A DNA stretch of 64,000 nucleotides, from contig OY762911.1 in NCBI GenBank assembly GCA_963666565.1, positions 2,022,797 to 2,086,796 of the forward strand. Reading direction: 5' to 3'. The notes under the pieces were generated by a model, which was given only the letters and a program-made list of their open reading frames with translations, was not told the DNA's origin and did no database searches. The DNA comes from Thermoanaerobaculia bacterium (GTDB taxonomy: Bacteria > Acidobacteriota > Thermoanaerobaculia > Multivoradales > Multivoraceae). Below are positions 36,025-51,888 of the stretch, piece by piece. How positions within the stretch are numbered: position 1 is the stretch's first letter; every line of letters starts with the position of its first letter. The translations under genes and the position numbers were made by a program.

Positions 36025-36154
36025 GGCGAGCTCCGGTAGAGGTTGCGGAAGGAAGGGGCGGTCGTGGCCGCTCGGCGGAGCTTACAGGCCGGAGTGACCG
36101 CTTGCGGCTCGGCGGTAGACTCGGCGAAGGCGCTTGCCGCCCGGAGACCGCTCC

Positions 36155-39100
36155 ATGACGACGCCCGAACAGGATCCGCGGATCCGCCTCGCCGAAGACG
36201 CCAGCCCGCTCCGGTTCGTGACGGCGGCGTCGCTCTTCGACGGGCACGACGCGGCGATCCACATCATGCGGCGCATGATCCAGGACCGCGGGGCCGAGGT
36301 GATCCACCTGGGCCACAACCGCGGCGTCGACGAGATCGTCCGCGCCGCGGTGCAGGAGGACGCCGACGCCATCGCGGTCAGTTCCTACCAGGGAGGCCAC
36401 ATCGAGTTCTTCCGCTACATGATCGACCGGCTGGCGGAGGAGGGCAGGGAAGACGTTCTCGTGTTCGGCGGCGGCGGCGGCACGATCACGCCGGAGGAGA
36501 TCGCGGAACTTGAGGCCTACGGCGTCGAGCGGATCTACCACCCCGACGACGGCCTGAAGATGGGTCTGCCGGCGATGATCGACGACGTCGTCGAGCGGGC
36601 GCACGCGAAGCGCCGGCCGGCGGCCGCCGAGCCGCGGTTCCGGGCGCGGATGGCGGCGGATCCCGGCGGCGACATCGAGCTCTCGGGGCTGTTGTCGGCG
36701 ATCGAGCGAGGCGCGCTGGACGAAGCCGAACTGCGCCGGCTACGCAAGGAGTGGCGCCTCGCCGGCGCCGGCGTGCCGGTCGTGGGCCTCACCGGCACCG
36801 GCGGCGCGGGCAAGAGCAGCGTCGCCGACGAACTGCTGAATCGCTTCCTCGATTCCATGCCGGAGGCCGCCTCTGAGATGCGGATCGCCCTGCTGGCGGT
36901 CGACCCGACCCGGCGGCGCACTGGCGGCGCGTTGCTCGGCGACCGCATCCGCATGAACAGCCTGCGCAGCGACCGCGCCTTCATGCGCTCGATGGCGACC
37001 CGCCGGCAGCACCGCGCCACCAGCGAGGTGCTGGGCGACGCGATCGCCCTGCTCAAGGCGTCCGGGTTCTCCATGGTCCTCGTGGAGACCGCCGGCATCG
37101 GCCAGAGCGACAGCGAGATCGTCGACCTGGTGGACCTCTCGATCTACGTGATGACCTCGGACTACGGCGCGGCCAGCCAGCTCGAGAAGATCGACATGCT
37201 CGACTTCGCCGACGTGATCGTGCTGAACAAGTTCGACCGGCGCGGCGGCCGGGACGCGCTGCGCGACATCCGCAAGCAGTGGCGTCGCAACCGCCTGGCC
37301 TTCCAGACCGCGGACGAGGACGTGCCGGTCTACCCGACGATCGCGAGCCAGTTCCAGGATCCCGGCGTCAACTGGATGTTCTGGAACGTCTGCCGGCTGC
37401 TGCAGGAGCGGCTCGACCTGGACGAGGAGGCGTGGACGCCGGAGATCGCACTGGACGAGCGCGAACCGAGCGCGGCGGCGCTGATCCCGGACAGCCGCAG
37501 CCGCTACCTCGCCGAGATCGCCGAGGCGAGCCGGGCCGCCGAGGCCGAGGCGGAGCGGCGCGCCGCCGCGGCGTCCAGGGCGCACGCCTGCTACCGGGCG
37601 CTGGCGGAACTCGACGACCCGGAGCTTCCCGAACCGCTCGCCGCGTACGCTGAGTCGGCGCTGGAGACGGCCCGCGGCGCCGGCGCCGAGTCGCCCGCTG
37701 GCGCAGGCGGGGAGACCGGCACGGGCGCGGCCGCCCGCGCCGCCACTCCCGACGTCGCCCGCGCCGCCGCGCCCTCCGGCACGGCCCCCGCCGCCGCTCT
37801 CGGCACGACCGCCGACGAGACCCTCTTGCGCCTGCGCCGGAGCTACCAGCAGGCGCTGGCGGAAGTGGGCGCCGGCGCGGCGGCACTCCTCCGCGCCTGG
37901 CCGGCCCGCGCCGCGGCCGCGCGTGCGGACCGGTACAGCTACCCGGTCCGCGGCCGCGAGGTCACCGGCGACAACTACGTCACGACGCTCAGCCACCTGC
38001 GGATGCCGAAGCTGGCCCTGCCCGAGTACTCGGACTGGGGCGACCTGCTGCGCTTCCTGCTGAAGCACAACCTGCCCGGCGCTTGGCCCTACACCGCCGG
38101 CGTTTACCCCTACCGTCGCCGCGGCGAGGAGCCGACGCGGATGTTCGCCGGCGAGGGGATCGCGGAGCGCACGAACCGACGGTTCCACTTCGTCTCGCGC
38201 GGCCAGCCCGCGAACCGCCTGTCCACCGCCTTCGACTCGGTCACCCTCTACGGCTCGGACCCCGGCGAGCGGCCCGACATCTGGGGCAAGGTCGGCAACT
38301 CGGGCGTCTCCATCGCCACGGTCGACGACATGAAGCGGCTTTACTCGGGCTTCGACCTGTGCGACCCCGCGACCTCCGTGTCGATGACGATCAACGGCCC
38401 GGCGCCGACCATCCTCGCCTTCTTCATGAACGCCGCCATCGACCAGCAGGTCGAACTGCACCTGCGCGAGACCGGCGGCTTGGAGCGGGCGCGGGCCGAG
38501 ATCGACCGGCTGTCAGGCGGCGACGTGCCGGTCTACCGCGGCGAACTGCCGGAGGAGAACGACGGCCTGGGACTGGCACTGCTTGGCATCTCGGGCGACC
38601 GGGTCGTCGAGCGCGAGGTCTACGAGCGCATCCGCGCCGACGCCCTGAGCCGGGTTCGGGGCACGGTGCAGGCCGACATCCTGAAGGAGGACCAAGCCCA
38701 GAACACATGCATCTTCTCGACCGAGTTCTCGTTGCGGACGATGGGCGACGTCCAGCAGTTCTTCATCGACGAGAACGTCCGCAACTACTACAGCGCCTCG
38801 GTCAGCGGCTACCACATCGCCGAAGCCGGCGCGAACCCGATCACGCAACTCGCGTTCACGCTCGCCAACGGCTTCACGATCGTCGAGTACTACCTCGCGC
38901 GCGGCATGGCGATCGACGACTTCGCTCCCAACCTGTCGTTCTTCTTCTCGAACGGGATGGACCCGGAGTACGCCGTGATCGGGCGGGTCGCCCGCCGCAT
39001 CTGGGCGCGCGCGATGCGCGAGCGCTACGGCGCCTCGGCGCGCAGCCAGATGCTCAAGTACCACATCCAGACCTCCGGCCGTTCGCTGCACGCGCAGGAG

Positions 39101-39760
39101 ATCCAGTTCAACGACATCCGCACCACGCTGCAGGCGCTCTACGGAATCCTCGACCGCTGCAACTCCCTGCACACGAACGCCTTCGACGAGGCGATCACGA
39201 CCCCGACCGAGCAGTCCGTCCGGCGCGCGCTGGCGATCCAGTTGATCATCAACCGCGAGTTCGGCCTCAACCGGAGCGAGAACCCCTGGCAGGGCTCGTT
39301 CGCCCTCGACCAGTTGACCGACGCCGTGGAGGAGGCCGTCTACCTGGAGTTCGAGCGCCTGTCCGAGCGGGGCGGCGTGCTGGCGGCGATGGACACGATG
39401 TACCAGCGCTCGAAGATCCAGGACGAGAGCATGGAGTACGAGGCGAAGAAGCACGACGGCAGCCTGCCGGTGGTCGGCGTCAACACCTTCCTCGCCGAGG
39501 GGCAGGAGCACGCCGAGACGGTCGAGGCGGAACTCATCCGCTCGACCGACGAGGAGAAGCGGCAGCAGATCGAGAGTCTGGCCTCCTTCCACCGCCGGCA
39601 CGCCGGCCACTCCGAGGCGTGTCTCGAACGCCTACAGGACGTCGCGCGGCGGCGGGGCAACGTCTTCGAGGAACTGATGGAGACGGTCAAGCACTGCTCG
39701 CTCGGCCAGATCTCGGACGCGCTCTACCGCGTCGGCGGCGAGTACCGGCGCAGCATGTAG
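36155..39760 (+). CDS. icmF: Fused isobutyryl-CoA mutase IcmF (B12-binding domain + MeaB-like GTPase + mutase catalytic domain)
   Basis: N-terminal B12-binding (DGHD), central G-protein (GLTGTGGAGKSS), C-terminal methylmalonyl-CoA-mutase-like barrel. Confidence 0.85.
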   Translation: MTTPEQDPRIRLAEDASPLRFVTAASLFDGHDAAIHIMRRMIQDRGAEVIHLGHNRGVDEIVRAAVQEDADAIAVSSYQGGHIEFFRYMIDRLAEEGREDVLVFGGGGGTITPEEIAELEAYGVERIYHPDDGLKMGLPAMIDDVVERAHAKRRPAAAEPRFRARMAADPGGDIELSGLLSAIERGALDEAELRRLRKEWRLAGAGVPVVGLTGTGGAGKSSVADELLNRFLDSMPEAASEMRIALLAVDPTRRRTGGALLGDRIRMNSLRSDRAFMRSMATRRQHRATSEVLGDAIALLKASGFSMVLVETAGIGQSDSEIVDLVDLSIYVMTSDYGAASQLEKIDMLDFADVIVLNKFDRRGGRDALRDIRKQWRRNRLAFQTADEDVPVYPTIASQFQDPGVNWMFWNVCRLLQERLDLDEEAWTPEIALDEREPSAAALIPDSRSRYLAEIAEASRAAEAEAERRAAAASRAHACYRALAELDDPELPEPLAAYAESALETARGAGAESPAGAGGETGTGAAARAATPDVARAAAPSGTAPAAALGTTADETLLRLRRSYQQALAEVGAGAAALLRAWPARAAAARADRYSYPVRGREVTGDNYVTTLSHLRMPKLALPEYSDWGDLLRFLLKHNLPGAWPYTAGVYPYRRRGEEPTRMFAGEGIAERTNRRFHFVSRGQPANRLSTAFDSVTLYGSDPGERPDIWGKVGNSGVSIATVDDMKRLYSGFDLCDPATSVSMTINGPAPTILAFFMNAAIDQQVELHLRETGGLERARAEIDRLSGGDVPVYRGELPEENDGLGLALLGISGDRVVEREVYERIRADALSRVRGTVQADILKEDQAQNTCIFSTEFSLRTMGDVQQFFIDENVRNYYSASVSGYHIAEAGANPITQLAFTLANGFTIVEYYLARGMAIDDFAPNLSFFFSNGMDPEYAVIGRVARRIWARAMRERYGASARSQMLKYHIQTSGRSLHAQEIQFNDIRTTLQALYGILDRCNSLHTNAFDEAITTPTEQSVRRALAIQLIINREFGLNRSENPWQGSFALDQLTDAVEEAVYLEFERLSERGGVLAAMDTMYQRSKIQDESMEYEAKKHDGSLPVVGVNTFLAEGQEHAETVEAELIRSTDEEKRQQIESLASFHRRHAGHSEACLERLQDVARRRGNVFEELMETVKHCSLGQISDALYRVGGEYRRSM

Positions 39761-39890
39761 CGCCGCCGACCGCCGCGCATGCCGGGTCCGTTGACGGCGA
39801 AGAACTGCGGCATATCTGCGCTCGCCAATGCTCAGGCCGAGCTACCAGTCATGCGCCAGGTTCCAGCCAGCTCCAGCGAGTCGTAGTCCT

Positions 39891-40877
39891 TCATCGCCTG
39901 GCCCGAAGCGGCCTGAAGAACAACTCCAGTTCGTTGACCTTCTCCTTGCGGGGCAACCTGAGTGTTCCACTGTCCAGGATACTCCCGGTGACCTCGATCG
40001 CGTAGACGCCGAACACATCGTCGTCTTCGACGTCGATGTCAACCACACTGATCAAGAGCGTGTCGCCTTCGTAGACCTTCACGAGCGTGCCGGACCGACG
40101 GAAGTTGTACCGGCCTGACTTCCTGGATCGCTCGGGTGTTCGCCCCCGGACAAGCCGCTCGACGCAGGCCAGTTCTAGCCTGTACCGTCCTGAGGCCGCG
40201 TTCAACATGGATTGCTGAATCGGTATCTCGTACCTTCGAGCCCTCTCGGCATCGGACAGCGGTGGGCTTGGCTTGCGCTTGCTGGCCTCATCCTTCGCTT
40301 CGAGCTCGGTGAGTTCCGTTTCGCGTAACGACACTTCGGCGGAGCTGAGTTGCAGCCTGCCTTCCGAGTACGCCTGCGTTTCGGACTTCAGTTGGTTCAT
40401 CCGCGTGCGCTCGCTCTCGGTTAGTGGCAGCTTCGGCTTTGACAGCTCGTCCTTCTGGACGAGTGCCGACAGCTCGGCCTGGAGGCGCTCCACCCTTGCG
40501 GCGATCTCCGCCAGACCGGTGCCGAGGTCGTCGACCAGCCCTTCCATCCTCAGGTCCTGGCGTTCCACGCGCACCTGGACGTCGGCCCCACTCAGGAAGT
40601 CCATCGCGCTTTGGCCTGAAACGCTGAGAGCGCCAACGCCCAGGCCATGGGCGCGGCTGGTTGGCAGGAGGTCGGAAGCCGACTCGCAAGAAGGCGGATC
40701 GAGCGGCACCGGCTCTTGTTGCAGAGACCAGGCTGGACCGCCAGCGAGAACTCCAAGACTGACCGCGATGAGGAACCGCGCCGGATCGACCGACCGCCAA
40801 GCTGCGACTGCCGGAGCGCCCCGGTGGCGGCTCCGCACCCGCTGTCGCGCACTCTCTTTCCCCATTCTGGCGGTCAC
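39891..40877 (-). CDS. Hypothetical coiled-coil protein with PL(S/T)(D/E)xExxR repeats and a conserved C-terminal VYEGD...FRP domain (paralog of 43199-44629)
   Basis: Lower-GC region; clear similarity to the downstream paralog in the coiled-coil, repeat and C-terminal roughly 65 aa regions. Confidence 0.5.
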   Translation of the reverse strand: MTARMGKESARQRVRSRHRGAPAVAAWRSVDPARFLIAVSLGVLAGGPAWSLQQEPVPLDPPSCESASDLLPTSRAHGLGVGALSVSGQSAMDFLSGADVQVRVERQDLRMEGLVDDLGTGLAEIAARVERLQAELSALVQKDELSKPKLPLTESERTRMNQLKSETQAYSEGRLQLSSAEVSLRETELTELEAKDEASKRKPSPPLSDAERARRYEIPIQQSMLNAASGRYRLELACVERLVRGRTPERSRKSGRYNFRRSGTLVKVYEGDTLLISVVDIDVEDDDVFGVYAIEVTGSILDSGTLRLPRKEKVNELELFFRPLRARR

Positions 40878-41035
40878 GACTCTTCTGTCTCCTCGGCCTT
40901 GAGCGGCGCCGAGATGCGGAGAACAGCGGCGCCGGTGTCGTCCGTTGTCTCAACCTCGCATCTGGTGGGCGTTGCATCGGCTGAGGCAAGGCTGATTGTC
41001 GATCCCATGGAGAGATCACTCTAACCTGAGAACGG

Positions 41036-41067
41036 GCTTGTAGTAGCGAGCAAGAACGTGTAGCTGG
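41036..41067 (-). promoter_or_regulatory. Conserved upstream motif CTTGTAGT-N14-ACGTGTAGC (copy 1)
   Basis: About 80 percent identical to 49099-49130; both lie about 150-200 bp upstream of minus-strand gene starts in the accessory cluster; coordinates approximate. Confidence 0.35.
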
Positions 41068-41158
41068 CCGATCGGCCTGGGTCGCTCAAGGGTCTCGTCC
41101 GGGATCGTGACCTTCCCCCGGCGAAGCTAGGGGAACGCGTGCGCGGGGAACGGGTCGC

Positions 41159-41503
41159 CTACTGGCACGGAAACGCCGTGATGTCCGACTTCGTGGTGGC
41201 GGTCGCGCCCTGCGGGTTGCCGTGCGTCCAGCGGCTGCCGTCGGGTCCCGTAATCCACAGGTTGAAGTCCAGGGTCGTCACCGGCGCCACGAACGCCCAG
41301 CGGTGGCCGTTGACTTGGCAACCGTCGAGCACCTTGACGAGAACCTCGGGGTTGTTGCGGCCGAAGAACCACAGAATGCCGGCCTCGCTGGACCAGGCTT
41401 CGGCCTTGACCGGGCCCGACTCGCCCTCTTGCGTGACGTAGCACATGCTGACCTCGAAGCCGCCGTCGAAGCGGAGGGCCACGGTCGTGGGCGTGCAGGT
41501 GCC
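41159..41503 (-). repeat. Dispersed about 340 bp repeat copy 1 (encodes the shared four-Cys domain)
   Basis: About 80 percent nucleotide identity to 44893-45231 and 48054-48392. Confidence 0.7.
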
Positions 41504-43060
41504 GACGGGATCCTCGGCCGGTCCGGAATCCGGGTCCGGGTCGGGGTCCGGATCCGGATCGGGCGAAGGCGTTCGCGGGCGTCTGTCGGCGAAACCGTCC
41601 TTGATCCAGTCGAACACCTTCGTGTTGGCCACGGTGCCGCGCACGTTCTCCGACGTGCGGCCGACCGCGTAGATCATCACGTCTTCGCCGGCGTGGGTCT
41701 CCAGGAACAGCGGGACCGTCGCCTCCTGCCGATATGCCGTGTGGCTGGTGCTCGTGGGAACGGCGCCGCCGCGGCCCGGCGTCCTGTCGCTGTTCGGATT
41801 GACCCGCGAACCGCTCCGGTGGCCCGGCCCGTTGGCGTAGCCCAGGATGGTGTAGGGAATGCCCCCCGAGTCGCCGCTCTCCGAGATCGTGCCGCCGCTG
41901 TCTATGTCGTGAACCGTTCCCAGGATGCCGTTGTGCGGCTGGTTGCGGAACGACGCGGGCACCGAGCGGGGGCTGTAGCGCAGGTCGCCGAGCGGCCGCA
42001 TCGGGTAGCCGGCGATCGTGAAGACGTGGCTGTGGTCCGCGGTCGCGAGGATCAGCGTCCTGTTGAGATTGACGCTCCGCTGCGCGGCGGCGATCGCTCG
42101 ATCGAACATCCGGGTGTCGGTGAAGGCGCGATAGGCGTTCCCCTCGTGGTGCGCGTGGTCGATCCGTCCCCCTTCGACCATCAGGAAGTACGGCTTTCCC
42201 GTGGCGGCGAGAATCTGGATCGCCTTCCTCGTCATCTCCTCCAGGCTCGGCTCGCCGCTGTCCCGGTCCGTTTCGTACTCCAGATGACTCGACGCGAACA
42301 GGCCGATCGCGCGGCCGGAACCGCCCAGCGAGTTGAGTCCCTGCCGGTTCCAGACGTAGCGGTAGCCCCGCTCTCGCAGTTCGTTTCGCAGATCGCGGCC
42401 GTCCGATCGGCTCCCTGGAAGTCCCTCGTCGTCCGATGCGGAAGTGGGAAGGAAGTGCCGTCGGCCGCCTCCGAAGACGACGTGGAGGCCCTGTCCGAGG
42501 CGGTCGTTGTATCCGCCGCCGCCCGGCGTCATCTGCCTGGCGATCTCGTTCTCCAGGTTGCGGTCGTTGACGTGCCCGAAAACGGCCGCCGGCGTCGCGT
42601 GGGTGACCCGCGTCGTCGTCACGATGCCCACTGCGTAGCCCATCGATATGGCCAGTTCGCCGATGTTGGTCAGCCTCGCGCTGTTGCCGTTGCCGTTGAA
42701 GTCCGCGTACTCGGTGGCCGGGCCGTAGCCGATCACGCCCGTGTTCGTGTTGACGCCGGTCATCATCGCCGACATCGTGGCGGCGCTGTCGGGGGTGATG
42801 TAGTCGGCCGACGCCGTGCGCGAGATGGCGGTGTAGGGCATGCGGTCGAGCGCCAGTTGCCCGTCGACGCCGACCGTCGCGATGCGGGTGGACGTGACGG
42901 TCGACACCCCCATGCCGTCGCCGACGAACAGGATGACGTTGTTCCTCTGCGCGGCCGCGGGCAGTGCCGCCGCCAGCAGGAGTGCGATGGTTGAGAGAGT
43001 GCTCAACGACGGGACGAGATTTCCGCGCACGCTTCCGATCTGCACGACACGACTCTTCAT
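41159..43060 (-). CDS. Alkaline phosphatase (PhoA family) fused via a (PD)n linker to a C-terminal roughly 114 aa four-cysteine domain
   Basis: Signal peptide; PhoA motifs (VGDGMG, TDSAATMSA, DHAHHEGN, ADHSH); linker PSPDPDPDPDPDPD; C-terminal domain shared with two neighbouring genes. Confidence 0.8.
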   Translation of the reverse strand: MKSRVVQIGSVRGNLVPSLSTLSTIALLLAAALPAAAQRNNVILFVGDGMGVSTVTSTRIATVGVDGQLALDRMPYTAISRTASADYITPDSAATMSAMMTGVNTNTGVIGYGPATEYADFNGNGNSARLTNIGELAISMGYAVGIVTTTRVTHATPAAVFGHVNDRNLENEIARQMTPGGGGYNDRLGQGLHVVFGGGRRHFLPTSASDDEGLPGSRSDGRDLRNELRERGYRYVWNRQGLNSLGGSGRAIGLFASSHLEYETDRDSGEPSLEEMTRKAIQILAATGKPYFLMVEGGRIDHAHHEGNAYRAFTDTRMFDRAIAAAQRSVNLNRTLILATADHSHVFTIAGYPMRPLGDLRYSPRSVPASFRNQPHNGILGTVHDIDSGGTISESGDSGGIPYTILGYANGPGHRSGSRVNPNSDRTPGRGGAVPTSTSHTAYRQEATVPLFLETHAGEDVMIYAVGRTSENVRGTVANTKVFDWIKDGFADRRPRTPSPDPDPDPDPDPDSGPAEDPVGTCTPTTVALRFDGGFEVSMCYVTQEGESGPVKAEAWSSEAGILWFFGRNNPEVLVKVLDGCQVNGHRWAFVAPVTTLDFNLWITGPDGSRWTHGNPQGATATTKSDITAFPCQ

Positions 43061-43198
43061 GGCCCAGACCCTCCTTCGTTGGTGCCCGGCCCCGGCAAGG
43101 GGCTTCATCGTCGGGATCGCGCCGCTCTTCAGCCGACCCGATGCCGACTCTTCCAACGATGGTAGTGGACTTGGCCTCAATCGGAGACTCGGCGGCCC

Positions 43199-44629
43199 CT
43201 ACCGAAGAGCGCCGGGCCGGAACTTCAACTCCACGTACTCCACGTCCGTCATGCGGGCGCGGAGAACTCCCTCTTCAAGCGTCCGACGATCGAGGACGAC
43301 CGTCGTCCTGCCGTAGAGGTCGTCGTACAAGACGTCCGCGTCCCAGACCTCGACGTCCAGTTCGTCTCCCTCGTAGACGGTGAGGATCTCGCGGTCGCCG
43401 AAGTTCACCACGGGACTCGACGTCTCCACCTTGCGCGTCCGAGCCGAGAGCAGGGCATCGAGCCGAGCCTGCTCCTCCTGCGCTTCGGCCCTCTCCTGCT
43501 GCAGGGTGCCGAGGTTCGCGGTCAGAGCCGTGAGGCGGACGGACTCCGACTCGGTCAGCGGGTCACCGGGAACGACTTCGCTTTCCGCCTTCCGCTCGGT
43601 CAGGTACTCAAGTTCGCGGCACATCGCGCACCGTGGGCAGGGATCCCGTTCGTCGAACGGGCTGCACGCCGCGCAGGCGGTCTCCGTGTAGACGGCGCAC
43701 GAGTGCGACACTTCGGCATCGAGTTCCCGCAGCCGTGCCAACTGGGTGTCGCTGAGAGGATCGCCGACAGCGACCTTGCTGGCCGTGTCCCTGGCCTCGA
43801 GTACTTCCAGTTCCGCCACGACCGCAGCTTGTTCCTCGGCCAACTCCGCCACCCTGCCGCCCAGCCAGTCCATAGCTCCCTGGATCTCGGGAACGTGCCG
43901 CCGGACCTGCACGAACGGATCGGGGTCCGAACTGGAGTCCTGGCGGTGCTTCCTGACGCGCATGACGCCGACGGAAAGGATGTACGGCGCCCGGCGATCC
44001 GGGCTGGCCACGCCCGGGCCACACGCCTTCTCTCCCTCGGTCGCGGGGTGCAGAGTCGAAGCGTGAACCCATCCGCGAGTGATGGGATCGTCGCCCAGAC
44101 GGGCCGAGGACGGTGCCGGATTCCGCGGCCCATGGTGTGCGGCATACAGCCAGCAGTTCCGCCTTTCGCGGACGTACACGAGTTGATCGTTGGAGGCTTG
44201 GAAGTCCATGGCGGCCGCGGCATGAGCCGGCGCTCGCCGGAAAGGCGCGCCCTCGCTCAGCATGCCGATGCGTAGCCATTCGTGGCGTTGTTTCAACTCC
44301 GCGGACAAGCCGCTGGTGTCCAGCACGCTTCGGCAGCCGGGCAACTCGTCCCGAGCGAACCGCAGATGGACACGCTCGCCGAGGAACTCAAGGACGCCCG
44401 AGGCTTCGCTCTCGCCCCGGGAAAGTGCTTCGGGATCGGACGACGCTTCGATCCGGAAACGTGGCGTCCGGCCTCGTCTCGTTTCCTCGCCAGCGAAGAA
44501 AAAGGAGCAGCCGAACTGCGGAAACGATGCCGAGCCGTTGCCGATCCGGAACTGCTCGTGGTAGCCCGTCAGCGAGCCGCTGGCCGGGTCGAAGGCGATC
44601 ACGGTGTCTCCGTCGTTACCCGGCACCAC
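43199..44629 (-). CDS. Hypothetical protein: N-terminal unknown domain, CxxC/CPRC zinc-ribbon-like motif, coiled coil, PL(S/T)(D/E) repeats, C-terminal VYEGD...FRP domain
   Basis: Paralog of 39891-40877; GTG start per the ORF track; no signal peptide evident. Confidence 0.5.
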   Translation of the reverse strand: MVPGNDGDTVIAFDPASGSLTGYHEQFRIGNGSASFPQFGCSFFFAGEETRRGRTPRFRIEASSDPEALSRGESEASGVLEFLGERVHLRFARDELPGCRSVLDTSGLSAELKQRHEWLRIGMLSEGAPFRRAPAHAAAAMDFQASNDQLVYVRERRNCWLYAAHHGPRNPAPSSARLGDDPITRGWVHASTLHPATEGEKACGPGVASPDRRAPYILSVGVMRVRKHRQDSSSDPDPFVQVRRHVPEIQGAMDWLGGRVAELAEEQAAVVAELEVLEARDTASKVAVGDPLSDTQLARLRELDAEVSHSCAVYTETACAACSPFDERDPCPRCAMCRELEYLTERKAESEVVPGDPLTESESVRLTALTANLGTLQQERAEAQEEQARLDALLSARTRKVETSSPVVNFGDREILTVYEGDELDVEVWDADVLYDDLYGRTTVVLDRRTLEEGVLRARMTDVEYVELKFRPGALR

Positions 44630-44766
44630 CTGCGCCCACGAGGGCGCCGCGAACGGCAGTGCCGAAGCGAAGAGGGCAAGGAACCCGCGCCAGACTGAAC
44701 GGCCGTACTCGGAGCCAGTGAACGTGCTTGACGGCCGCGGTCGGTCGTGGTGGTTGTCCGGGAGTA

Positions 44767-47340
44767 TCAGGGCACTCTCTCCCCTCGTTCCGACTGCGCC
44801 GAGATGCGAAGAACCGCGGCGCCGGTGTTGCCCGTCACATCCACTTTCCCGTCATCATCGCCGTCCCCGTCGTCGTCATCATCCTCGTTCGCGCACTGGA
44901 ACGCGTTCGTGTCGCTCCTGGTCGAGGCCGTCTGGCCTTGCCGATTGCCGTGCGTCCACCGGGTGCCGTCCGGGCCCGTTATCAAGAGATTGAACTCCAG
45001 GGTCGTGACCGGCGCCACGAACGCCCAGCGGTGTCCGTTGTGCTTGCAGCCGTCGAGCACCTTGACCAGAACTTCCGCGTTGCCCCGGTCGAAGAACCAC
45101 AGGATGCCGGACTGGCCGGATGCCCAGACGCCGGACCTGGCCTGGCCCCCGTCTCCGTCGGGCGTGCGGTAGCACATGCTGACCTTGTAGCCGCCGTCGA
45201 ACTGAAGCGCGGTCGTCGTCGGCCTGCAGCCCATGGTCGGCGGAGCTGGGCGGTCACCTTCCCGAACCACGCGGATGTCGTGACCGGAAGGCGCCAGCAC
45301 CAACTCGTAGCGGTTGCCCCGCCAGGTGAACGGCCTGTCGGGGAGGAGCGCACCAGGCCTCGTCCTGTTTCCGTCCACGTCTTCGGTGAAGTCGCACTCG
45401 TTCAGCCAGCCGTTCCGGTCGAGGTCGAGGCAGACGAAGTCCTTGTCGTCCTCGGGCAGCGCGTCAGATGGGGAGTCGAACCGTCCGTCGCCGTTCCCAT
45501 CGACAGCCAGCGCCAGCAGCCGCCCTCCCGACGGCAGCTCGACTTCGCCCCTCCAGACGCTGGACGGGCCGTACACGAGACCGTTCGACAAGTCGCCGCG
45601 CTGGGCGGACATCGTAATGGCGTAGGGCAGGACCAGCCCCGACGCATAGGGCACTTCCAGAACCGCCCCGGTTGTCCCCACAGCCCACGGACGCTCCGTG
45701 TTCCACGCCGTGAGCAGCGGCGGTCCGTCGTCGGTGAGATTTCGGTTCCTGTTCCGATCAACCCAAACGCGGATGAACCGGTTCTGGAAGTACGACGAGT
45801 AGTACCCACTCGCCGCGAACCGTTCGACATCGCAAAGCTGAGGCAGGAGCACCGTCGGGCAGGACTCGGGTCTCCTATGGCTGTCGACGAGGATCTCGAA
45901 CCGGCCTCCCGCGTCTCCAAGCTCAAGAAACTGGTAGGACGCCGAGTCTCCCCGAACTGCCGGATAGACCACGTCGGATGGCCGACTTGCATGAACCTGT
46001 ACCCGCTGAGTGATGTGGAGGCCGGTGTAGCCGCTCAGCCTGCCGTTTCGGCTCACGAAGGCGAGTCCGCGGCCGTCCGTGTTGTCGTCCATCCGGTCCC
46101 CGATGCCGTCGCCGTCCGTGTCCCGCTGCTCCCGCGGGTTCAGAGGGAAGGCGTCCGCGGCGTTACTCACGCCGTCGCCGTCGGCGTCCCGGTCCAGTGC
46201 GTCGGCGATGCCGTCACCGTCCGTATCGCGCCAGTCTCGGTGGTCCAGAGGCAGAGCGTCGATGAAGTCCGGTGCTCCGTCGCCGTCGTCGTCAAGGTCG
46301 GTCCGATTCGGCGTGCCGTCGCCGTCAGTGTCGTTCGCGGTCCCTGGGCGCGCCAGCGCGGCGCCGGACGACAGCCACTCGAAGATCTCTCTCGGGGGCG
46401 TGTCGCCAGACGAGCAGTGACCGCCGGGCGCATCCAGATCCGCGCGGGTTTCCAGGCCCAGCCAGTCTGAGTAGTACCTCGCCATCGACTCGGCGTCCTG
46501 ATGCAGGAAGTCTCCCGTCGTGGCTTCCACGAACACGCGAAAGCGCTCCCTCACGAACTGGGCGGCGAATGGGGTCCACTGAAACGAGGGCCTCCACGGT
46601 GCGTGGTGGAACGGCGGAGCGACGGCGTAGGTGTCGTGCGAGGCGTCGCCGTCGAAATCCAGCCAGAAGCACCCGCAATGCGCGTGAAAGCCACCGCCGT
46701 AGCTGCCGCCGTAGAACTCCATGAACTGCGCCAGGAAGCAAGTGCCCTGGGAGCCGCCGGCGAAGACGATTCGGTCGTGGTCGAGAGCAAGCCGCGACTT
46801 CAGGTTGTTCTGGAGCAGTTCATGGATCAGGCGCGCGTCTTCGCCTTGCCAGAACCGGGTTCCTCCCGCGCCGACTGCTTCGGGGAGCAACGTGCGTTCA
46901 CCGAATGAGATCTCCTCCGGCACCGAGTTGGGAGACGCCGGCACGATCAGCGCCAGCCCAAGATCCAGAGCCGTATCGACGTGCTGGTACCTGGGCTGCC
47001 GCAGCTCCTCGGCCGTTCCCCTGTTGTTCCCGTGGAAGAAAACGACCGCTCCGCGAGGCGTCGTCGGATCCCAGCCGCTCCTCACCCAGTACCGGTAGAG
47101 GAGAGTCCGGCCGGTGGAATCGGTGAACGAGTCATCGTGCCATACCGTGGACTGCCCTTGGACGGCGCCGGAAGCGGCGAGGAGCGCAACTGTCAGCGCC
47201 CAACGTCGTCGTCCGAGTCTCCGAGTCAGCGCCTGCCGGGAGAGTCGCATCAGTTCTGCACAGTCCGCCAGGGTCGTCCCCATCGCTTGTTCTCTCACCT
47301 TTTGCCGCCCTTCGATGGATGCACGGGATTCAACTCGCAC
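44767..47340 (-). CDS. Secreted multidomain protein: alpha/beta-hydrolase (GGSQG serine esterase), thrombospondin type-3 Ca-binding repeats, unknown middle region, shared four-Cys domain, acidic tail
   Basis: Signal peptide; VVFFHGNN...FAGGSQGTCF; DTDGDGxxD TSP3 repeats x4-5; C-terminal domain about 90 percent identical to that of 47388-48953. Confidence 0.65.
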   Translation of the reverse strand: MRVESRASIEGRQKVREQAMGTTLADCAELMRLSRQALTRRLGRRRWALTVALLAASGAVQGQSTVWHDDSFTDSTGRTLLYRYWVRSGWDPTTPRGAVVFFHGNNRGTAEELRQPRYQHVDTALDLGLALIVPASPNSVPEEISFGERTLLPEAVGAGGTRFWQGEDARLIHELLQNNLKSRLALDHDRIVFAGGSQGTCFLAQFMEFYGGSYGGGFHAHCGCFWLDFDGDASHDTYAVAPPFHHAPWRPSFQWTPFAAQFVRERFRVFVEATTGDFLHQDAESMARYYSDWLGLETRADLDAPGGHCSSGDTPPREIFEWLSSGAALARPGTANDTDGDGTPNRTDLDDDGDGAPDFIDALPLDHRDWRDTDGDGIADALDRDADGDGVSNAADAFPLNPREQRDTDGDGIGDRMDDNTDGRGLAFVSRNGRLSGYTGLHITQRVQVHASRPSDVVYPAVRGDSASYQFLELGDAGGRFEILVDSHRRPESCPTVLLPQLCDVERFAASGYYSSYFQNRFIRVWVDRNRNRNLTDDGPPLLTAWNTERPWAVGTTGAVLEVPYASGLVLPYAITMSAQRGDLSNGLVYGPSSVWRGEVELPSGGRLLALAVDGNGDGRFDSPSDALPEDDKDFVCLDLDRNGWLNECDFTEDVDGNRTRPGALLPDRPFTWRGNRYELVLAPSGHDIRVVREGDRPAPPTMGCRPTTTALQFDGGYKVSMCYRTPDGDGGQARSGVWASGQSGILWFFDRGNAEVLVKVLDGCKHNGHRWAFVAPVTTLEFNLLITGPDGTRWTHGNRQGQTASTRSDTNAFQCANEDDDDDGDGDDDGKVDVTGNTGAAVLRISAQSERGERVP
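44893..45231 (-). repeat. Dispersed about 340 bp repeat copy 2
   Basis: About 95 percent nucleotide identity to 48054-48392. Confidence 0.75.
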
Positions 47341-47387
47341 AGAGCCTCTGTCGGGTCGTCGTCATGCGGCGGCTCCCTCGCGGCCCT

Positions 47388-48953
47388 CTACCTCCTGGTC
47401 TCTACCCAGGTACCGGCCGTAACCGTTCTCCCTTCGATCCGGCAGGTGCTCGCGTCGCATGTGTACCGATAGGGACGCCTCTCGACGTAGCCGTTCCGAG
47501 AACAGCGCACGTTCGTTTTGCCACCGGAGTTGCTGAGGGAACACCTCGACAACCCGCCGTTGAGGCTCCACGAATCCGAGGGCAACGTCGTAATGACGTC
47601 ACCGACGTTGTACCTGGTTCCCGACCCGCCGCCGCCGCTGACCGTCACGCGGACGCCGCTGGAACAGTTGTTGCCGGTGTTCGATTCGCCCGACACGGAA
47701 TCCACGCAGGCGCCGTAGTAGTACGTGCCCGCGCTGGACGGCGCCGTCAGGCTGATCGACTCGGCACTGGAGCTCGAGGCGGAGAGGACACCGACCGAAT
47801 CCGTGCCGACCTGCGTGTCGGAGGTGCCGATGCTGGAGTTCGACGAGCGGTAGTAGCGCAGCGTCGTGGCGGCGGAGCGACCGTCGCCCTGGTTGCGCAC
47901 CGTGGCGCGGAGCGTGAAGCGGTCGCCCGCGCTGAGGCTGCTGTCGCTGACCGACGGGCTCGACACCACGAGGTCGGGCGCCGACGTTGGTTCGTCATCG
48001 TCCCCGTCATCATCACTGTCGTCCCCGTCATTGTCGTCATCACCATCGGTCGCGCAAGCGAACGCTCTGTTGTCGCTCTTGGTCGAAGCCGTCTGGCCTT
48101 GCCGGTTGCTGTGCGTCCACCGCTTGCCGTCCGGTCCCGTGATCCAGAGGTTGAACTCCAGGGTCGTGACCGGCGCCACGAACGCCCAGCGGTGTCCGTT
48201 GTGTGTGCAACCGTCGAGCACTTTGACCAGAACTTCCGCGTTGCCCCGGTCGAAGAACCACAGGATGCCGGACTGGCCGGATGCCCAGACGCCGGACTTC
48301 GCCTGGCCCACGTCCCCAGCGGGCGTGCGGTAGCACATGCTGACGTCGTAGCCGCCGTCGAAGCGGAGCGCCGTTGTCGTGGGCCTGCAGCCTGCGGTTG
48401 GCGGGGGGTCGGGATCGGGATCCGGCGGCTGACTTTCTTCGGACGTTGCGCGCACTTCGCATCCGGTGGGCGTTGCTCCAGAGACCGTCCCGGTCATGTG
48501 GAAGGTCCTGGTCTGGTTGGCCTCCATCCTCCCGAGGAGCTGATTGCCTATCTGGCGCCGCCCCGGCTCGATATAGCCCCGTACCCTGACGTTCCTGACG
48601 GACCGTTGGGCCGTCACGCTCCCGCCGATGGTCGCGTTCCAGGTGCTGCCGGCGGTCTGGTCAGCCCTGCAGGTCGTGACGCGGCCGGTCAAGGCCGGGC
48701 CGGACGCTGCTGCATGGACGGATTCGGTGTCACCGGCGGCGGCATTGACGAACACCGTGCTCGGTGCGGCGTGCAGAGGCACTTCCCAGGCAACAAGTTC
48801 CCGGTCCTGCTGAGCGGCCGATGGCGCCGAAACGGCCATGGTCAACGCCATCAGCGTCAGCAGGACGGCGGGTCGAGGAACGCGAACGCCTCCGGCTCCG
48901 TTCCCTCCGCGGGTCTGGCGCTTCTGGCTCGGGCCGATCATTGTGTTGTTCAT
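47388..48953 (-). CDS. Secreted multidomain protein: unknown N-domain, PDPDPD linker, shared four-Cys domain, poly-acidic linker, CARDB-like domain, Cys-containing C-terminal domain
   Basis: Signal peptide; CARDB-like region LVVSSPSVSDSSLSAGDRFTLRATVRNQGDG; shared domain GCRPTTTALRFDGGYDVSMCY...AFAC. Confidence 0.6.
   Translation of the reverse strand: MNNTMIGPSQKRQTRGGNGAGGVRVPRPAVLLTLMALTMAVSAPSAAQQDRELVAWEVPLHAAPSTVFVNAAAGDTESVHAAASGPALTGRVTTCRADQTAGSTWNATIGGSVTAQRSVRNVRVRGYIEPGRRQIGNQLLGRMEANQTRTFHMTGTVSGATPTGCEVRATSEESQPPDPDPDPPPTAGCRPTTTALRFDGGYDVSMCYRTPAGDVGQAKSGVWASGQSGILWFFDRGNAEVLVKVLDGCTHNGHRWAFVAPVTTLEFNLWITGPDGKRWTHSNRQGQTASTKSDNRAFACATDGDDDNDGDDSDDDGDDDEPTSAPDLVVSSPSVSDSSLSAGDRFTLRATVRNQGDGRSAATTLRYYRSSNSSIGTSDTQVGTDSVGVLSASSSSAESISLTAPSSAGTYYYGACVDSVSGESNTGNNCSSGVRVTVSGGGGSGTRYNVGDVITTLPSDSWSLNGGLSRCSLSNSGGKTNVRCSRNGYVERRPYRYTCDASTCRIEGRTVTAGTWVETRR
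48054..48392 (-). repeat. Dispersed about 340 bp repeat copy 3
   Basis: See copies 1 and 2. Confidence 0.75.
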
Positions 48954-49098
48954 GGTGACCGTGTCTCCTTGGTCCGGTTGGCCGCCAGGTCTCCTGCCCT
49001 TCCGCCGTCAACACCCGGCGATTTGCCGCGACGGACGCGCGCTTCGCGTTTACCGAAGACGCGCTCTTCATCATGCTCGTCAGCCTACGACGGACGCG

Positions 49099-49130
49099 GC
49101 TTGTAGTGCCGAGGAGAAACGTGTAGCCGG
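49099..49130 (-). promoter_or_regulatory. Conserved upstream motif CTTGTAGT-N14-ACGTGTAGC (copy 2)
   Basis: Upstream of the first gene of the minus-strand cluster (start 48953); see copy 1. Confidence 0.35.
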
Positions 49131-49151
49131 TCGCGGTGGCGCGGCAGCCGG

Positions 49152-51845
49152 TCAGGAGTCGCCGGGGATCAGGCCCATGTCCCAGGCCCGCCGGACGGCC
49201 TCCGCCCGATTGCGGGTGCCGAGCTTGGCGAAGATGCTCCGCAGGTTGTACCTCACGCCATGCGTCGTCAGACCCAGTTCGGCGGCGATCTCCTTGTCGC
49301 GGCGACCCGGCAACCGGTGCAGCACTTCAAGTTCGCGCTCGCTGAGCGACGGCGCCGAACCATCGTCCGCGTCGCACATCGCCAGGAGCGAACGGGCGGC
49401 TGGCCGGTGGGAGGCGTCCGCGCCGAGCTCGAGGTACATCCGCAACGCGTCCGCGCAGGTTGCCTGGTCCCGCACCAGGGGCCAGGCGTAGGGCGACTCG
49501 ACGAACAGCCTTAGGTACTCCGTCAGATGCCGCAGGCTCGCCTGGGTGTCGCCGGCCTGCTGTTCCAGCGAGACGGACAGCGCCAGGGCGCGCATCTCGA
49601 CGGTGCGGAGGCCCAGCTCGGCCGCAACCGAGCGTAGCCGGCGCAGCAACGAGCGCCCTTCCTCCCACCGTCGGCCCGCGATCGACAATCGGGCGCGAGC
49701 TTCCGAAACGGCCTCCATTTCCCTCCAGCTCTGAGCCGTCAGATCCACGCAGTCCTCAGGCTCCTCCGGCAACGCCTCCCGCCGCCAGGCGCGCTCGGCT
49801 TCCGTCGTGCGGCCGGCGATCGCCAGCACCGATATCCGGAGCGCGACGATCAGTCTCAGGAAGGCGGTCAATCCGGCCCTGCGTGAACGAAGCACCAGCT
49901 TGTCTGCCACGGCGAGAGCCTCTTCGACCTGTCCGGACCCGAGTCTGGCGCCGATCAACACGTTGCTGGCCGTTGCGAAGTACGAGAAGGGCACGCCGTG
50001 GCGCGTCAACACGCTCAGTACGCCGGGCGGGTTGGCGGCTGCCGAAGCCGGGTTGCATTCCAGGGCGATTTCGTGCCGCACGAGATCGCAGCTCGTGGTC
50101 GCCGTGGGATCGAGCATGAAGCACTTCCTGGCAATCCGCCGTGCTCTGCGGCAGTGTGCCCGGGCGTCCCGTGGCCGGCCCCTCACGAAGTCGATCTGGC
50201 CATGCAGGATTCCTCCGTACAGCGCGATGTAGTCGGTACCGGTGGACTCGAGCGCCGCGGAGAGCGTGTCGAGAGCGTCGGCGAACTCTCCCTTCAGAAA
50301 GTGGAGGATGCACAGCCCGTACTCGAACCCGCCGCGCTTGGCCGGGGCCAGATCCGCATCCGCCGTCAGCCGGGCGATGTCGCGAAGCAGGGCCTCCGAC
50401 GAGTCCGACCCGACGGGAGATATCCCGTACAGGGCCAGGCAGAAGCGAGCGGTGAGATGCTCCAGGCGGTAGCGGAAGTCGTCCTCGTCGTCGCTGGCGG
50501 GGACAGGACGGGGACACGTCCGGTAGAGATCCCGAGCTTGGTCGCCACGTCCGGTAAGCGCCAGCGTGACGCATCTGAGGAGCTTGAGTCGCGGCGATTC
50601 GGCGACGACAGCCTCGCTCAACAGGCGGTTCGCTTGCTGCAACTCCGGGACGCCGTTGCGCATCCACAAGCGTACCCCGCCCGCCTGTTCGGCAATCCGA
50701 CCGGCGAGGAACGGATCGCGCCCCTCGATCGCGTGGCGCATGGCCGCTATCGTCTCGCGGCGTTTCGCCAGGGCGGCGGCGATGCGCCGATGGATGGCGG
50801 CGAAGCGTTCCGGGTCTTCGCGAAGCCGCCTGGCGGCGCAGTGCTCTCGCACCAGCGGATGCAGCCGCCAGCGCCGGGTTTCGCCGTCGCTCAGCGGCTC
50901 AAGCAGCCCGGTCAGCGCGGCCATCGACTCGAAGCGGCGCATCGAGTCGTTTCGTTGCAGGACTTCGTCCAACAGCGCCGCGTCGGTCCAGTCGAGCAGG
51001 GACATGTCCAGAACGAAGTCCCGGTCGCCGCGCCCGAGAGGCGCGAACAGGCGGGACTCGATCCAGTTTCCGAGGAAGCCATGCCCACTGTCGCGGTCGT
51101 CGTGCGCTTCGTGTTGCATACCGTTGCGGGCAATGCGCAGTGCGACCGGCCATCCGGCTGAACGGTCGATCTCTCTCGCCAGGGCTCGGCGGGAAAGGCG
51201 GAGACCGAAGAACCTGGCCACCTCCGCTCGGGAGAACCTCAGGTCTTCGGTTTCCACGGCCTCCGCGTGGCCCGCCAGCAGGGGACTGGCCACATCGAGG
51301 CCGTCCGGGATCTCCCGGCCCGCCAAAGCCAGGTGCAGATTGGAGGGGCCGCGTTGCAGGAGCAACGTCAGGAGCGGGACGGAGGCGGGATTCAGACGCT
51401 CCAGCTCGTCGAACGCAATGACGAAGGGTCTTCCGAGGGACTCGATTCCGTGCAGAACGGTGCCGATCCGGCTCGCCGGTCCAGCGCGCGTTTCCCTCAC
51501 GGGCGGCACGTCGCCCAGGTTCAACCCGGCCTCGGCGCAGGCGAAGGCGATGTAAACGTCGAGTACGCCGGGCTCGTCGTTCTCGTCCAGCGAAATCCAG
51601 GCCGTGGCGACCCCGTCCCGGCGGACTCGGCGGCAGCACTCCGCCATCAGGGTCGTCTTCCCGAAACCGCCGGAGGCCCTCAGCACCGAGAGCTTGCGGC
51701 GCGTGGGCAGCGCCCGCTTCTCGAGTTCCGGCCGGCTGAGGTAGCCGGCCACCCTGTCCGGGATCGCGACCTTCCGCCGCAGCAGCCAAGGGAACGCGCG
51801 CGCGGGGAAGGACTCCGCGGGCATTCCTCGCGACGCTCCGGTCAT
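49152..51845 (-). CDS. Large ATP-binding LuxR-family transcriptional regulator (LAL / MalT-like)
   Basis: N-terminal P-loop (GGFGKTTL), long helical/TPR-like middle, C-terminal LuxR HTH (LSERELEVLHRLPGRRDKEIAAELGLTTHGVRYNLRSIFAKLG). Confidence 0.8.
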   Translation of the reverse strand: MTGASRGMPAESFPARAFPWLLRRKVAIPDRVAGYLSRPELEKRALPTRRKLSVLRASGGFGKTTLMAECCRRVRRDGVATAWISLDENDEPGVLDVYIAFACAEAGLNLGDVPPVRETRAGPASRIGTVLHGIESLGRPFVIAFDELERLNPASVPLLTLLLQRGPSNLHLALAGREIPDGLDVASPLLAGHAEAVETEDLRFSRAEVARFFGLRLSRRALAREIDRSAGWPVALRIARNGMQHEAHDDRDSGHGFLGNWIESRLFAPLGRGDRDFVLDMSLLDWTDAALLDEVLQRNDSMRRFESMAALTGLLEPLSDGETRRWRLHPLVREHCAARRLREDPERFAAIHRRIAAALAKRRETIAAMRHAIEGRDPFLAGRIAEQAGGVRLWMRNGVPELQQANRLLSEAVVAESPRLKLLRCVTLALTGRGDQARDLYRTCPRPVPASDDEDDFRYRLEHLTARFCLALYGISPVGSDSSEALLRDIARLTADADLAPAKRGGFEYGLCILHFLKGEFADALDTLSAALESTGTDYIALYGGILHGQIDFVRGRPRDARAHCRRARRIARKCFMLDPTATTSCDLVRHEIALECNPASAAANPPGVLSVLTRHGVPFSYFATASNVLIGARLGSGQVEEALAVADKLVLRSRRAGLTAFLRLIVALRISVLAIAGRTTEAERAWRREALPEEPEDCVDLTAQSWREMEAVSEARARLSIAGRRWEEGRSLLRRLRSVAAELGLRTVEMRALALSVSLEQQAGDTQASLRHLTEYLRLFVESPYAWPLVRDQATCADALRMYLELGADASHRPAARSLLAMCDADDGSAPSLSERELEVLHRLPGRRDKEIAAELGLTTHGVRYNLRSIFAKLGTRNRAEAVRRAWDMGLIPGDS

Positions 51846-51888
51846 TCGGCGATCTTACCGGGGACGCCTACTGCTAGATTGCCCGCCC

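Follow-up and report, generated by a model that had tools for sequence, protein, structure and literature searches.

A large family of predicted four-cysteine extracellular domains, viewed from a variable genomic island of a Thermoanaerobaculia bacterium

Results

Three Adjacent Secreted Proteins Share One Domain

In a 64,000-nucleotide (nt) stretch of the genome of a Thermoanaerobaculia bacterium (GenBank assembly GCA_963666565.1, contig OY762911.1, positions 2,022,797 to 2,086,796; hereafter the window), three neighboring genes encode Sec-exported proteins that each carry one copy of the same four-cysteine domain (Table 1): an alkaline phosphatase (PhoA) of 673 amino acids (aa), a protein of 857 aa with TSP3 repeats, and a protein of 521 aa with a CARDB domain. 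The positions and consensus of the three copies given in the initial annotation, which was made from the letters of the sequence, are correct, and all copies lie in frame on the minus strand. Pairwise alignment places copies 2 and 3 at 89.7% nt identity without gaps and 88.5% aa identity, so that the roughly 95% DNA identity first assigned to this pair was too high; copy 1, put at about 80%, indeed measures 77–79.5% (77.7% nt and 70% aa identity to copy 2, 79.5% and 72% to copy 3). Within the window, tblastn comparisons among the copies reach E values of 1e-52 to 3e-79, and neither tblastn nor a broad family hidden Markov model (HMM) finds a fourth copy in the 64 kb.

The similarity starts about 15 nt before the codon of the first Cys, beyond which flank identity is 30–45%; downstream of the last Cys it decays in an acidic linker that is only loosely alike, and the sequences flanking the copies beyond the domain edges are unrelated. 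The ratio of nonsynonymous to synonymous substitution rates (dN/dS) of the domain copies is 0.11–0.30. A low-complexity or chance repeat is ruled out by the E values (1e-52 to 1e-79), by the confident fold described below, and by similarity that ends at the domain edges; the resemblance extends beyond low-complexity sequence, as had been anticipated, the domain itself being neither low in complexity nor poorly modeled. A noncoding or mobile DNA repeat is likewise ruled out by the in-frame placement of the copies, their dN/dS below 1, and protein-level conservation over thousands of clusters. What is repeated is a domain of the encoded proteins rather than a DNA element, and this domain is under strong purifying selection.

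Table 1. Features of the domain-bearing locus and its flanks (window coordinates)
Feature	Position	Strand	Remarks
IcmF-type mutase gene	36134-39760	+	Conserved flank
Variable 12.1-kb island	39761-51888	.	Between IcmF-type mutase and acyl-CoA synthetase genes
Secreted alkaline phosphatase, Pro-Asp linker and copy 1	41159-43180	-	673 aa; PF00245 E 1e-101, residues 80-526
Domain copy 1	41162-41503	-	114 aa including final Gln; extreme C terminus of alkaline phosphatase; stop codon 41159-41161
Secreted protein of 857 aa	44767-47340	-	Signal peptide, weak alpha/beta-hydrolase-like N-terminal part, TSP3 repeats, further region, copy 2, 41-aa acidic tail
Acidic tail after copy 2	44770-44892	-	41 aa; absent from orthologues
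Domain copy 2	44893-45231	-	113 aa; residues 704-816 of 857-aa protein
75-nt identical stretch, copy 2	45062-45136	-	Core of putative conversion tract
Secreted protein of 521 aa	47388-48953	-	Signal peptide, N-terminal region without family, PD linker, copy 3, poly-Asp linker, CARDB, C-terminal region
Four-Cys C-terminal region of 521-aa protein	47388-47650	-	About 80 aa; conserved
CARDB domain of 521-aa protein	47658-47981	-	Pfam E 2.6e-13, residues 325-432
Poly-Asp linker of 521-aa protein	47991-48053	-	
Domain copy 3	48054-48392	-	113 aa; residues 188-300 of 521-aa protein; truly internal
75-nt identical stretch, copy 3	48223-48297	-	Partner of 45062-45136
Large LuxR/MalT-like regulator gene	49152-51845	-	Head of island; read from translation of the open reading frame
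Acyl-CoA synthetase gene	51889-53559	+	Conserved flank

For comparison, a genome scan recovered 71 related loci (numbered with an L below) from Candidatus Multivorans, Thermoanaerobaculia, and 'Holophagales' metagenome-assembled genomes (MAGs), several of which, to judge by their isolate labels, may be of sponge or coral metagenome origin. The alkaline phosphatase scores 341 bits against the PF00245 profile, whose gathering cutoff is 24.4, and belongs to that family; its true start is likely Met41 (about 43060), followed by a signal peptide that ends in AAA before Q. A linker of PD repeats (residues ~535–559) leads into copy 1, after which a single residue precedes the stop codon, and this phosphatase-domain fusion is kept in every related genome examined. 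The 857-aa protein, with orthologues in L001, L002, and L007, contains calcium-binding repeats (Pfam TSP_3, E 6e-5; NCBIfam MtsC-like repeats, E 5e-9) and a weak match to extracellular polyhydroxyalkanoate depolymerases (E 0.0055, below the cutoff). The 521-aa protein is 80% identical to its L004 counterpart over residues 187–519 and continues for 221 residues past copy 3. Its C-terminal region of about 80 residues found no family match in the Pfam scan; in L001 and L002 this region is ~89% identical and stands directly after the shared domain, with no CARDB in between, and its varying neighbors are a putative further sign of module-level rearrangement. In all three hosts Sec signal peptides were read by eye from the translations (ending in ...LLLAAALPAAA before Q, ...ALLAASGAVQG before Q, and ...MAVSAPSAA before QQ).

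The domain had been described as internal in both the 857-aa and the 521-aa protein. For the latter this stands; in the former it holds only owing to the 41-aa acidic tail, given that the 857-type orthologues in three related genomes stop 6–7 residues past the domain. In L064, the homologue of the DNA that encodes the tail is an intergenic stretch upstream of PhoA, and the tail is probably a read-through into formerly intergenic DNA that arose when a C2-like gene inserted.

A Large Family on Extracellular Proteins

Copy 3, used as the query of a word-indexed search, matched 25 short hypothetical proteins; of these, the three that have a source name derive from Acidobacteriota or 'Holophagales' MAGs. 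An HMM built from the alignment of the copy-3 search matches was then run exhaustively over 1.84 billion cluster representatives, of which 8861 matched at E ≤ 1e-3, 6887 at E ≤ 1e-10, and 1476 at E ≤ 1e-30. Domain arrangement was read from a re-scan of 171 proteins, made up of the 25 word-search proteins and 146 of the 150 best HMM matches, the remaining four being among those 25: 71 carry one copy, 94 carry two, and 6 carry three or four. Many have one or two copies just past the signal peptide, followed by 250–1500 further residues, and in P0234 and P0269 a signal peptide and a single domain of the distant subtype described below make up a stand-alone secreted protein. The domain is hence not a simple C-terminal tag, as had been argued from the window alone: N-terminal, internal, tandem, and stand-alone forms are common, though most members carry it at the extreme C terminus and end 1–3 residues past it.

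Across 77 + 10 family members the partner domains are uniformly extracellular and comprise fn3, reprolysin-type, M10, and M60 peptidases, leucine-rich repeats, CARDB, purple acid phosphatase, Calx-beta, and Big, as well as FGE-sulfatase, spondin, PKD, VWA, sortilin/BNR, lactonase propeller, and LamG. The domain is shuffled among many unrelated extracellular proteins. The expectation that it matches no described Pfam family was borne out by searches of window proteins and family members alike: in the three window proteins no Pfam-A or NCBIfam profile matched the domain at E ≤ 0.1, no domain-covering Pfam family appeared among the 77 + 10 members, and the precomputed Pfam field reads '-' for domain-only proteins. 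A PADLOC search and a PDB sequence search were negative for the domain, and literature searches on the genus name or motif strings found nothing. As judged from these searches, this is a very large family without an entry in Pfam-A, NCBIfam, or the PDB.

A distant subtype carries the motif LCLxxGRFxVxVxW...FWFFxxxNxExLxKVLDGC and, by profile-profile comparison, is unambiguously homologous to the window subtype (hhalign probability 99.9, E 2e-37). Two stand-alone genes for a signal peptide and one copy of this subtype (L072 4001-4459 and L073 4001-4504) sit among ordinary metabolic genes, not in islands. Many database entries of the family (among them P0002, P0004, P0005, P0014, P0018, and P0019) are fragments of about 100 aa that begin at the internal Met of the MCY motif; full family genes appear to be miscalled or frameshifted in public MAG annotations, which hides their real architectures.

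Predicted Fold and Cysteine Pattern

AlphaFold2, run on copy 3 with a 19-sequence alignment, gives an all-beta model of ~10 strands and one short helix with a predicted local distance difference test score (pLDDT) of 94.3 and a predicted template modeling score (pTM) of 0.88. Foldseek returned nothing below E 0.1 with this model, and a profile search of PDB sequences gave no match; the predicted fold class is ordinary, with no identifiable solved relative.

Exactly four Cys are present in 225 of 244 domain instances. Conservation is 100% for C61 and C112 and 94% for C1, and the second Cys lies at position 19 in the window subtype (70%) or at position 9 in the distant one (27%). This pattern fits the pairs C1–C19/C9 and C61–C112, that is, one predicted short N-terminal disulfide and a second that would tie the last strand to the KVLDGC strand. 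Both halves of the initial proposal, two disulfides and an extracytoplasmic fold, are thereby favored: by the prevalence of four Cys, by a second Cys whose position switches with subtype, and by the signal peptides read in the three hosts and in P0234 and P0269. In the same set, conservation reaches at least 94% at each of the polar residues N50, E52, K56, N64, T75, N95, and D106. In the Cys-poor variant of the distant subtype seen in P0174, Arg replaces the invariant third Cys (KVVDGRGVNGHYW) and the terminal Cys is absent, from which it follows that the fold is not strictly dependent on disulfides.

Probable Gene Conversion Between Copies 2 and 3

A neighbor-joining tree of 119 full-length copies places copy 1 among the PhoA-linked copies of other species; in a 22-sequence subset, copies 2 and 3 pair as sisters (bootstrap 0.89). 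Copy 1 differs from its L001 and L002 counterparts by 0.03 nonsynonymous (dN) and 0.24–0.28 synonymous (dS) substitutions per site, and the PhoA-linked domain is more constrained than the phosphatase catalytic part (dN 0.03 vs. 0.10). Copies 2 and 3 are separated by a dS of 0.25, copy 2 and the domain of the L002 orthologue by 0.69. Outside the domain, dS to the L001/L002 orthologues is 0.41 for PhoA, 0.55–0.61 for the 857-aa gene, and 0.46 for the regulator, where the comparison leaves out the L001 and L064 values, which alignment or frameshift problems made unusable. With respect to other species, the distance of copy 2 to 521-type domains (dS 0.43 to L004) is likewise smaller than that to 857-type domains.

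Within the domain's middle third, copies 2 and 3 show 7 differences from each other vs. 21–30 in comparisons against other species. The identical stretch of 75 nt listed in Table 1 spans 28 consecutive sites that vary among homologues yet are the same in the two copies, and a run-length permutation test restricted to sites variable among homologues yields P = 0.03. These comparisons indicate that copies 2 and 3 probably exchanged DNA by gene conversion. Both host genes are older than the split from L001 and L002, where their orthologues have domain copies of their own, so that in the simplest account copy 2 would have been overwritten by copy-3-type sequence after that split. Gene conversion or shuffling, as initially put forward for this pair, therefore finds backing in the tree, the dS values, and the tract, at 90% rather than 95% identity. 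The further suggestion that the copies offer a substrate for recombination is matched by the 75-nt perfect direct repeat and by a locus that is rearranged between species; the repeat could aid further recombination. Similar mosaic signals occur in several other copy pairs of other genomes.

A Variable Island Between Two Conserved Genes

The three domain-bearing genes lie in an island whose flanking mutase and acyl-CoA synthetase proteins are 85–96% identical in relatives. In 11 related species the slot between these genes measures 2.0–2.2 kb and holds the PhoA-domain gene alone; in six species it measures 4.1–10.4 kb and holds 2–4 domain copies, and the 12.1 kb of the window is the largest seen. 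Domain-bearing genes accumulate side by side in this variable island, and since half of the recovered 12-kb loci hold 2–5 domain copies, clustering of such genes is general.

Gene order also differs: L001 and L002 have PhoA-regulator-X-857, the window regulator-521-857-C2-PhoA-C2. The regulator has orthologues that are 78–87% identical in L064, L008, L001, and L002. Just past the PhoA stop codon, a 54-nt stretch (41097-41150) matches the 5' end of the regulator coding sequence (51756-51809) at 85% identity, a remnant which implies an earlier arrangement, still present in L001 and L002, with PhoA ahead of the regulator; it translates as FPARAFP-stop-LRRGKVTIPD, compared with FPARAFPWLLRRKVAIPD in the regulator. 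G+C content is lower in the island (0.66–0.68 at 38000-52000 vs. 0.70–0.75 in the flanks), as is G+C at third codon positions (GC3; 0.76–0.88 in island genes vs. 0.95 in flanking genes), both consistent with accessory or acquired DNA.

A conserved element of 33–40 nt (ACACCGGCGCCGCGGTTCTTCGCATCTCGGCGC) lies upstream of each of the two C2-like paralogues (40906-40945 and 44796-44835) and upstream of PhoA in Candidatus Multivorans thiocomprendens (L064 4240-4272); within the 857-aa open reading frame it is translated as part of the tail. An RNA element at this 40-nt shared sequence was considered and rejected, as Rfam gave no match and folding showed no signal (z +0.7 to +1.4), and on these grounds the element may instead be a regulatory DNA site.

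Discussion

The shared domain is, in our view, an autonomously folding, all-beta extracellular module of ~106–113 residues with two predicted disulfides that would stabilize it, and its likely role is binding or tethering; we give this explanation a probability of roughly 0.55. In the window the module sits on flexible linkers, Pro-Asp or poly-Asp, that join it to the Sec-exported alkaline phosphatase, TSP3-repeat protein, and CARDB protein. Its own contribution would be noncatalytic: it would keep secreted enzymes and adhesin-like proteins bound to a polymeric ligand and so prevent their loss by diffusion. Such a ligand would probably be a glycan or matrix component, either on the bacterium's own surface or in the matrix of a sponge host. 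A binding role is suggested because flexible linkers, tandem copies, exoenzyme and adhesin partners, and stand-alone forms together are the signature of a noncatalytic binding module.

Several points weigh against parts of this account and of the locus history given above. Binding is inferred from architecture alone, and the strong preference for the extreme C terminus would fit a sorting or anchoring signal as well. The run test behind the conversion tract gives only P = 0.03, uncorrected; the neighbor-joining tree depends on 339 nt and the direction of conversion on short sequences, and a less likely alternative is that the L001/L002 orthologues, not the window copy, were the converted ones.

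The C-terminal preference leads directly to the idea, which we regard as unlikely, that the domain is a secretion or surface-sorting signal comparable to the type IX C-terminal domain of Bacteroidota, in which case a dedicated machinery would recognize the folded C-terminal beta-sandwich, move the cargo over the outer membrane, and then attach it to the cell surface or remove the domain. That most members end within three residues of the domain, that it is terminal in PhoA and in the 857-type orthologues, and that a single genome places it on many unrelated secreted enzymes and adhesins would all be expected of such a signal; tandem pairs in 94 of the 171 proteins, with up to four copies per protein, are hard to reconcile with it, as are N-terminal pairs with 250–1500 residues after them, the truly internal position in the 521-aa protein, and the existence of stand-alone single-domain secreted proteins. 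There was, moreover, no match to Por_Secre_tail or any other sorting-domain HMM, and the host is an acidobacterium, whereas the type IX secretion system (T9SS) is known from the Bacteroidota group. Somewhat less probable again is a structural or oligomerization module with no external ligand, which would stabilize its cargo in an oxidizing milieu or assemble domain-bearing proteins with one another: a compact module with predicted disulfides and a conserved core would suit this, and the clustering of domain genes, with 2–5 copies in half of the 12-kb loci, could reflect co-assembly, but a pure spacer is unlikely to conserve seven polar positions (N50 to D106, listed above) at 94% or more, and a stand-alone secreted form would be unexpected.

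As to the likeness of copies 2 and 3, we consider it improbable, and the least likely of the alternatives weighed here, that it stems from a recent duplication of the domain segment or from strong codon-level constraint, without conversion of pre-existing genes. An identity of no more than 90%, the P value of the run test, and the high conservation of the domain everywhere would be compatible with this; the presence of both host genes before the L001/L002 split, with orthologues that carry their own domain copies, is not readily so, and neither is a dS of 0.25 between copies 2 and 3 that lies below the between-species dS of the same genes (0.41–0.61), or the variation among homologues of synonymous sites within the identical tract. 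We favor gene conversion for this pair and a binding or tethering role for the domain. A bolder extension, offered as speculation and on a par with the structural alternative in its low likelihood, is that sponge-symbiont Acidobacteriota have an undescribed system for surface display or host-matrix targeting with the module as its recognition handle, and that the conserved coding sequence of the module doubles as a recombination handle by which genes for secreted proteins are newly captured alongside resident ones and are exchanged; if true, this would explain the pile-up of domain-bearing genes in variable islands.

Nearly nine thousand clusters and a confident fold, combined with no database entry or solved relative, amount to a clear gap in protein-family annotation: members are labeled 'hypothetical' or left nameless in the databases searched, and several small ones are apparently truncated gene calls. 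Abundant symbionts of sponges and corals bear the domain on phosphatases, peptidases, and adhesion repeats, and knowledge of its ligand would reveal by what means these bacteria retain exoenzymes on their surface or adhere to the host matrix. The locus itself illustrates, in nature and on a small scale, gene conversion at the level of a domain and the growth of an island between two fixed housekeeping genes.

Among known systems, the T9SS C-terminal domain (Por_Secre_tail, PF18962/TIGR04183) is alike in being a small beta-sandwich at the extreme C terminus of many unrelated secreted enzymes and adhesins per genome. The window domain differs in its greater length (106–113 aa), its two predicted disulfides, its acidobacterial host, and its frequent occurrence in tandem, at the N terminus, internally, or alone, arrangements so common in the family that the single-copy, strictly C-terminal layout of the T9SS domain does not describe it. 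No match to the Por_Secre_tail or TIGR04183 profiles was found in the window proteins or family members scanned, and no T9SS-like genes were seen in a partial Pfam pass of the window. With carbohydrate-binding modules and accessory beta-sandwiches on Pro-rich linkers it shares the character of an independent beta module on flexible linkers that has been reshuffled from hydrolase to hydrolase, frequently occurs as tandem copies, and in some cases stands alone, the resemblance in fold being weak only. The PPC domain (PF04151) likewise occurs in one or two copies at the C terminus of secreted metallopeptidases, and reprolysin, M10, and M60 partners are common in the present family too. Having matched none of the profiles and architectures against which it was compared, the domain is best described as a candidate new family, one whose size and missing annotation merit a description. 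The history of copies 2 and 3, finally, resembles concerted evolution in bacterial surface-protein genes, in that paralogues within a genome are closer than orthologues between species, the tract is bounded by a repeat, and the locus is variable; unlike the typical case, the exchange here is old (dS 0.25) and concerns one pair only, copy 1 evolving as a plain orthologue, so that gene conversion and island dynamics at this locus are clear but not unusual.

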